From sequence record PV648359: DNA of 64,000 nucleotides. One strand, 5' to 3'. The stretch is from Escherichia phage LF82-1. This document shows, piece after piece, positions 23,955 through 24,152 of this stretch. Each line of letters starts with the position of its first letter. The first letter of the stretch is position 1. The notes under the pieces are model-generated. The model ran no database searches and had not been told where the DNA came from. It saw only the letters and a program-made list of their open reading frames with translations. The translations under genes were made by a program, and so were the position numbers.

Positions 23955-24152
23955 ATGTTTAAACTTCCATCGTTAATCAACGCTATTAAAGGCAATAAAA
24001 AGAAAACTGCTATCGCTGCAATAGTTGTAGGTGGCATTATTTCATGGAACTTCGGTATCGCACCGGTGTTAGTTGCTAATGGTATTATAGTTCCTTCTGT
24101 TCCATTGGATACTGTAGTTGATTTGGCCTTTGCTATTATAGGGCTTGTTTAA
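23955..24152 (+). CDS. small hydrophobic membrane protein on the plus strand
   Basis: 65 aa; strong AAGGAG RBS 5 nt before ATG; two predicted TM segments; convergent with gene 61, overlapping its stop. Confidence 0.5.
   Translation: MFKLPSLINAIKGNKKKTAIAAIVVGGIISWNFGIAPVLVANGIIVPSVPLDTVVDLAFAIIGLV

Follow-up and report, generated by a model that had tools for sequence, protein, structure and literature searches.

A conserved gene for a small predicted membrane protein, very probably transcribed late, lies opposite the primase gene 61 of T-even-type phages

Several described proteins and transcripts resemble parts of a small locus that faces the primase gene 61 in T-even-type phages. The antiholin RI of T4 is a protein of 97 amino acids that presents an N-terminal signal-anchor and a globular periplasmic domain. 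In bacteria, MgrB, AcrZ and similar proteins are single-pass regulatory microproteins that bind larger membrane proteins. Regarding transcription, the genes soc and 49 have late expression in T4. The early and middle transcripts of T4 all run with the polarity opposite to that of the ORF studied here, i.e., on the strand of gene 61 (PMC2988020). Both sense and antisense transcription of gene 32 of T4 have been described (Belin et al. 1987, as cited in PMC3014915; see also PMC2988020). The closest described system is the protein family PHROG 2024, whose RB69 member, located at the same position and on the same strand, is named RB69ORF029w, and which accounts for hundreds of GenBank entries labeled "hypothetical protein".

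The ORF that we analyzed is a member of this family and presents no difference from it: its product matched PHROG 2024 over the full length (E = 1.4e-26; residues 1–65 on positions 1–65 of the 65 of the profile). In this window it is an ordinary gene that has already been annotated as hypothetical, and we saw no sign of a new mechanism. By analogy with RI of T4, it would be a small T-even protein with a predicted periplasmic working end and a moderately hydrophobic membrane segment, but it shares no sequence or fold similarity with RI, its predicted periplasmic part comprises only about 24 residues and its conserved residues are partly located in the membrane helix. The resemblance to MgrB and AcrZ is likewise an analogy, based on the predicted N-in/C-out orientation, a size of 40–70 amino acids and conserved polar and aromatic residues in or near the helix; however, there is no homology, and the ORF is encoded by a phage and predicted to be expressed late. 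Class II/III holins and pinholins are similar to the product in size, hydrophobicity and expected late expression, but the product lacks a charged C-terminal domain and matches no holin family, and its gene is not linked to those of an endolysin or a spanin. The late promoters of soc and gene 49 also consist of a TATAAATA-type box shortly before the start codon within the early region. These two genes, however, belong to the early (minus) strand, where early or middle transcripts coming from upstream can also read them, whereas the ORF lies on the opposite strand. Finally, the antisense RNA of T4 gene 32 is not known to encode a conserved protein, whereas the late RNA of the ORF would be an mRNA in the first place.

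We analyzed a window of 64,000 nucleotides, corresponding to positions 64001–128000 of the record of Escherichia phage LF82-1 (PV648359) and to the arm of a T-even-type genome that carries the early genes. Over the 1.9 kb that surround the ORF, the sequence is 100% identical to Escherichia phage LF82-2 (PV648360), a Mosigvirus that carries the same CDS as a hypothetical protein (XUL00606.1), and its identity to numerous other RB69-like members of Mosigvirus is 97–98%. About 115 CDS are annotated in the window and the ORF is the sole complete one on the plus strand; the only other plus-strand annotation is the 3′-terminal 23 nt of the holin gene t, at window positions 1–23. A first-pass annotation made from the sequence alone had singled out this ORF as the only convincing plus-strand gene, and our screen agreed: among plus-strand ORFs of 45 amino acids or more, no second one combined a ribosome-binding site with a location where the minus strand is non-coding. 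The ORF occupies the 267-nt gap that separates genes 61 and 56 (table 1) and encodes the protein MFKLPSLINAIKGNKKKTAIAAIVVGGIISWNFGIAPVLVANGIIVPSVPLDTVVDLAFAIIGLV. We recovered the strong AAGGAG ribosome-binding site that had been reported, and GGAGG or AGGAG is kept at this position in all homologous loci. The reported overlap of the stop codons of the ORF and gene 61 is also present, in the form of a TTAA that is common to both. Elsewhere on the minus strand (26549–27584), imm (superinfection immunity) and an imm.1-like membrane protein gene adjoin sp (spackle), between dmd and gene 61; in T4, imm is located at another place, adjoining gene 42. These early exclusion genes (imm, imm.1-like and sp) are clustered 2.4–3.4 kb from the ORF.

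Table 1. Positions of the ORF, its neighbors and the promoter-like sites in the window.
Feature	Position	Strand	Remarks
CDS of a 65-amino-acid small membrane protein (predicted)	23955..24152	+	ATG start; PHROG 2024; RB69ORF029w orthologue
Shine-Dalgarno AAGGAG	23944..23949	+	5 nt before ATG; read from sequence
Shared-stop TTAA palindrome	24149..24152	.	ORF TAA 24150-24152 and gene 61 stop 24149-24151 (minus)
Gene 61, DNA primase	24149..25171	-	Convergent neighbor; phrog_47, E = 4e-102
Gene 56, dCTPase (MazG-like)	23345..23866	-	Divergent neighbor, 5′ of the ORF
Predicted gp55-type late promoter box AATAAATA	23926..23933	+	T4 consensus TATAAATA, A(-13) variant
Putative MotA-type middle promoter of gene 56	23900..23923	-	GCTTTA, 12 nt, TAGAAT
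Late box TATAAATA of soc	23338-23331	-	31 nt upstream of soc
Late box AATAAATA of gene 49 (endonuclease VII)	55006-54999	-	29 nt upstream of gene 49
MotA-type sites, minus strand	10357, 13565, 23923, 31911, 33509, 37086, 44057, 47290, 60435	-
MotA-type site, plus strand	20162	+

The ORF had been considered a genuine gene, and its conservation argues for the same conclusion. Using tblastn, the protein was detected in 692 phage records, in 685 of which the ORF is intact along 80% or more of its length. Another subfamily, paralogous to the first (MGTIFYQIWKL...), is represented by 134 records. Comparison at the codon level revealed purifying selection in the frame of the ORF (dN/dS = 0.04–0.25 overall and 0.05–0.24 within Mosigvirus). 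The dN/dS of the window phage is 0.10 relative to ESCO47 and 0.12 relative to T4, and similar comparisons yielded 0.075 for Marfa relative to JS10 and 0.043 for Kosakonia 305 relative to PEi20. Most substitutions affect third codon positions: the changes at codon positions 1, 2 and 3 were, respectively, 15, 3 and 32 between the window phage and ESCO47, 14, 3 and 34 between Marfa and JS10, and 2, 2 and 20 between Kosakonia 305 and PEi20. Four residues (W31, N32, P37 and P47) are invariant down to 25–35% identity, variation is very limited at A39, G43 and V49, and position 52 or 53 is acidic. An exhaustive profile search against 1.84 billion cluster representatives yielded 19 clusters and no larger or annotated relative. 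All 19 clusters range from 33 to 70 amino acids, and the family is therefore a self-contained family of small proteins rather than a fragment of a larger protein. When three divergent metagenomic members were used as tblastn queries, only the same locus was matched in known phages, and a locus search with the subfamily alignment returned 10 loci. Scanning eight family members against Pfam and NCBIfam with E-values up to 10 yielded only sub-threshold noise, and a literature search on Ribo-seq and small ORFs of T4, late antisense transcription, RB69ORF029w and phrog_2024 returned no paper on the ORF. Overall, the ORF is very probably a real, selected and late-transcribed gene for a small membrane protein.

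We further analyzed the distribution of the ORF across T4-like phages. It is located opposite and tail-to-tail to gene 61 in the genera Mosigvirus, Tequatrovirus, Gaprivervirus, Dhakavirus, Kanagawavirus, Moonvirus, Gelderlandvirus and Marfavirus, and the same plus-strand, tail-to-tail arrangement was observed in the individual phages RB69, T4, VR25, JS10, Marfa, Q7622, Kosakonia 305, PEi20, Moon, Melville and ESCO47. The 4-nt overlap of the stops is found in T4, VR25, Marfa, JS10, Kosakonia 305, PEi20, Moon, Melville and ESCO47; the only exception among the genera is the Kanagawavirus phage Q7622, whose ORF overlaps gene 61 by about 24 nt. The flank away from gene 61 varies: it is occupied by gene 56 in the window and by dam in T4, and other phages have MazG-like genes, a homing endonuclease or unknown genes there. 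Members of the two subfamilies occur side by side in the Gaprivervirus VR25, where A precedes B and B adjoins gene 61, and in the Mosigvirus ESCO47, where B′ precedes A, the two overlap by 8 nt and A adjoins gene 61. This opposite order suggests that exchange has occurred repeatedly at this slot. The ORF was absent from the T4-like phages that we examined outside Tevenvirinae, namely Slopekvirus KP15, Pseudotevenvirus RB16, a Krischvirus, Acinetobacter phage Melin and Aeromonas phage SW69-9. In the first four, gene 61 is followed by 7–17 nt and then by the next gene on the same strand, and in SW69-9 gene 61 is followed by a gap of about 95 nt with no convergent ORF inside. Since T4-like phages without the ORF have hardly any spacer, we conclude that the spacer exists because of the ORF.

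T4 itself, the reference genome of the group, possesses an intact and selected homologue of 66 codons (MVQKLMALVNAIKGNKKR...) at positions 17738–17938 (+) of NC_000866, with a AAAGGAGG ribosome-binding site and a GATAAATA box at 17709–17716, from which transcription would be expected to start near 17722. This copy sits in the 309-bp gap between dam and 61 that RefSeq NC_000866 leaves unannotated, and the exact T4 protein sequence has no accession in NCBI or UniProt. Any omics or knock-down screen based on this reference annotation will miss the T4 copy.

A NATAAATA or ATTAAATA box was found 14–22 nt before the ATG in every lineage examined, and its flanks are unalignable between lineages. The box reads AATAAATA in the window phage, JS10 and some Tequatrovirus, GATAAATA in T4, CATAAATA in VR25, PEi20 and ESCO47, and ATTAAATA in Moon and Melville, and it is the perfect TATAAATA in Marfa, Q7622 and Kosakonia 305. 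It matches the consensus at seven of eight positions in the window phage, with A at −13, and at seven of eight in T4, VR25 and PEi20, with G or C at −13. Of the 50 late promoter sites listed for T4, nine have A in place of T at −13, and a TA-to-AT variant is also recorded (PMC2988020); in most T4-like phages, A or T occupies this position (PMC1524935). The sequence before the ORF presents the properties of a T4-type late promoter, with a TATAAATA-type box about one helical turn ahead of the predicted transcription start and no −35 element. Moreover, WATAAATA is depleted about four-fold in the window (4 copies relative to 17.5 ± 3.9 expected), and the box of the ORF is its single copy on the plus strand. 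Three of the four copies are located 21–31 nt ahead of a start codon: that of the ORF, that of soc and that of gene 49. The fourth copy (10858–10865, minus strand) lies within a hypothetical CDS of 366 amino acids (10559–11659, minus strand), upstream of an ORF of 66 amino acids and rIIA, and it may be an internal late promoter.

Judging from the box and from the polarity of the early and middle transcripts of T4, the ORF is very probably a gp55-dependent late gene, with a predicted transcription start near 23939 and a leader of about 16 nt. It would be expressed late only, since the early and middle transcripts of T4 all run on the other strand, and its own late promoter would be the only one available to it, because it lies on the strand opposite to soc, gene 49 and the early genes. 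In T4, dRNA-seq identified 150 phage transcription starts, of which 22 are antisense, according to a preprint (bioRxiv 2024.04.04.588121). The ORF would be among the very few genes of the early region that can be expressed only late, and it encodes a predicted membrane protein conserved in all eight Tevenvirinae genera examined and in Marfavirus. These results also bear on the earlier proposal that convergent transcription into gene 61 serves its regulation, which needs to be re-framed: given the conserved T4-type late promoter on one strand and the early and middle transcripts of T4 on the other, the ORF and gene 61 are most likely transcribed at different times and not head-on. With gene 61 being early/middle and the ORF late, head-on convergent transcription is probably limited.

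The product was modeled with AlphaFold2 using an alignment of 33 sequences of the family. The model (pLDDT 83) presents a helix at residues 4–11, a long helix at residues 15–41 (pLDDT 84–91), a loop at residues 42–50 and a helix at residues 51–62. The initial description as a hydrophobic protein with two helices was roughly right: the hydrophobicity is confirmed (GRAVY = +1.24), and the model presents two short helices and a long hydrophobic one. This hydrophobicity, together with the long hydrophobic helix, is consistent with the claim that the ORF encodes a membrane protein, and one GenBank submitter has named an orthologue "putative transmembrane protein". The segment ahead of the hydrophobic core contains five Lys and no acidic residue, and the 24 residues after the core, which end in AIIGLV, contain two Asp and no basic residue. 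T4, Marfa, Kosakonia 305 and Moon show this charge pattern too, and it is kept across subfamilies. Based on the positive-inside rule (basic N-terminus and acidic C-terminus) and the AlphaFold2 model, we predict a single transmembrane helix with an N-in/C-out orientation. The C-terminal helix does not span the membrane in this prediction because 12 residues are too few; it could re-enter the membrane instead. Conservation is centered on the outer half of the long helix (W31-N32, P37 and A39) and on the loop (G43, P47, V49 and D/E52). An Asn embedded in the membrane is a classic driver of helix-helix association, and this residue together with the location of the conserved positions points to the binding of a partner at the periplasmic face.

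We propose the following sequence of events. RNA polymerase modified by gp55, gp33 and gp45 would start transcription at the AATAAATA box, which would yield an mRNA with a short leader, and AAGGAG would drive its translation. The basic N-terminus would remain in the cytoplasm, residues ~18–41 would cross the membrane and the acidic C-terminal 24 residues would be exposed to the periplasm. W31-N32, P37, A39, G43, P47, V49 and the acidic residue at 52/53 would form the surface that binds a membrane protein of the phage or the host at the periplasmic face. As a by-product, the late transcript would be complementary to two early-strand segments, the 3′-terminal part of the early 61 mRNA and the 61-56 spacer.

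Some properties of the locus would also be expected if the coding sequence were secondary or fortuitous. The ORF is short, its 267-nt gap carries a minus-strand promoter-like site and the curated RefSeq annotation of T4 lacks it, as would be the case for a chance ORF called by gene-finders within a regulatory spacer made of the 3′ UTR of 61 and the promoter of 56. However, the ORF evolves under purifying selection in its frame, it remains intact across genera at 25–55% identity, its ribosome-binding site and late box are conserved, and T4-like phages without it have only 7–17 nt at this place (about 95 nt in Aeromonas). We found no conserved minus-strand ORF at the locus. The selection and the conserved signals lead us to reject a chance ORF, whose probability appears close to nil. 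It is also conceivable that the locus acts mainly as an RNA, the late plus-strand transcript being antisense to the early polycistronic 61-56 mRNA and contributing to the shut-off or processing of early messages, and the peptide being secondary. Because the ORF and 61 overlap tail-to-tail, a terminator cannot fit between them. No conserved intrinsic terminator is found 3′ of the ORF, so that late transcription would proceed into 61 in antisense, and none is found on the minus strand 3′ of gene 61, so that early RNA probably crosses the ORF in antisense. The late RNA would then be complementary to the early 61-56 RNA, for which gene 32 offers a T4 precedent. Against a role of this kind, neither the low dN/dS nor residues invariant at 25% identity are expected from an RNA alone, and paralogous subfamilies occupy the same slot with completely different nucleotide sequences. 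The transcript could also end early at a plus-strand hairpin inside the 3′ end of gene 61 (24185–24252; outer stem of 11 bp), which is followed by the U-rich tail UUUUCUUUC and folds better than shuffled sequences (z = −2.8). This hairpin could terminate the late transcript in this phage, but RNAalifold revealed no conserved structure at this position across 13 loci and a scan for a consensus terminator found none, and we therefore do not claim it as a terminator. Because selection acts on the protein, the antisense RNA cannot be the main role and the peptide itself matters; we regard a primarily RNA-based function as unlikely. A late antisense effect on leftover early 61-56 mRNA is possible as a by-product of the expression of the predicted membrane protein.

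Other alternatives concern the nature of the peptide. Its small size, hydrophobicity and predicted late expression would suit a holin, pinholin or antiholin-type lysis protein, and one UniProt entry, the orthologue of the Tequatrovirus phage OE5505, is named "Holin". In addition, Ala, Gly, Ser and Thr are fairly abundant in its transmembrane segment, which in this respect is similar to the releasable signal-anchor (SAR) domains found in T4 RI and in pinholins. The lone "Holin" label does not constitute evidence because all other database names are "hypothetical". The charged hydrophilic C-terminal tail typical of holins is missing, as the C-terminal 24 residues contain no Lys or Arg, two Asp and a hydrophobic GLV end; no holin family of Pfam or NCBIfam was matched at E = 10 and the fold search returned only the family itself (Foldseek of the model yielded no match in the PDB and, against a viral structure library, only members of the same family at E < 1). 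The ORF is also not linked to the lysis cassette: its neighbors are 61 and 56, and the holin gene t ends at window position 23, about 24 kb away. We reject a lysis protein of these types, which seems very improbable, based on the missing tail, the missing family match and the missing linkage to lysis genes. A cleavable signal peptide or a releasable anchor that frees an active periplasmic peptide of about 24 residues (NGIIVPSVPLDTVVDLAFAIIGLV) appears improbable as well. This would fit the signal-peptide-like layout (a basic N-region, a hydrophobic core, Pro37 and A39-x-A41 before G43), the near invariance of A39 and the A-x-A found in T4 (AIA), VR25 (ALA) and Moon (ALA). On the other hand, the −3/−1 pattern is missing in subfamily B (AAT-Q or AAS-Q) and in the window (L-V-A), the core of 19–23 residues contains the invariant W31-N32, which is unusual given that the cores of signal peptides are poorly conserved, and AlphaFold2 predicts a single continuous helix at residues 15–41. 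Finally, we considered a type I toxin, a class whose members have about 60 amino acids or fewer; the product, with 65 amino acids, is borderline in size and has a GRAVY of +1.24. We found no separate promoter/terminator pair for a small RNA on the opposite strand, where the signals correspond to the end of gene 61 and to the putative middle promoter directed away toward gene 56, and a type I toxin-antitoxin system was rejected on this basis. Our analysis found no connection of the product to toxicity or to holins. The label "membrane effector", which had been proposed for the predicted product, is plausible.

Considering the ORF as a late gene for a membrane protein with a periplasmic working end, in a family limited to T-even-type phages, its most likely involvement would be in late envelope events: the timing or inhibition of lysis, or protection against superinfection. 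This is a guess that we advance tentatively. To our knowledge, the classical r (rapid-lysis) mutants of T4 have not been mapped to the interval of the ORF, which weakens the part of this guess that concerns the control of lysis. A more specific version, in which the product is an overlooked component of late envelope control in T-even phages, for instance by pairing with holin T, antiholin RI or an inner-membrane protein of the host to tune the timing or inhibition of lysis or late superinfection exclusion, is rather unlikely. If true, such a component would have escaped sixty years of T4 genetics, owing to the small size of the gene and its absence from the reference annotation. The new elements presented here are the unannotated T4 orthologue, the conserved late promoter, the synteny in Tevenvirinae with absence outside, and the predicted topology with its motif. 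The ORF constitutes a well-defined and cheap target for a knockout, topology mapping and a search for partners.

We also searched the window for MotA-type middle promoters, for which the consensus of RB69 has been described (PMC1524935). The motif GCTTWA-N11-13-TANAAT was found 10 times relative to 0.59 expected, and nine of the 10 sites are on the minus strand. One of them, the putative middle promoter of gene 56, is arranged back-to-back with the late box of the ORF at a distance of 2 nt, and gene 56 seems, from this motif, to have its own middle promoter. The MotA-type sites are spread over positions 10333–60435 of the window and constitute a map of candidate middle promoters.
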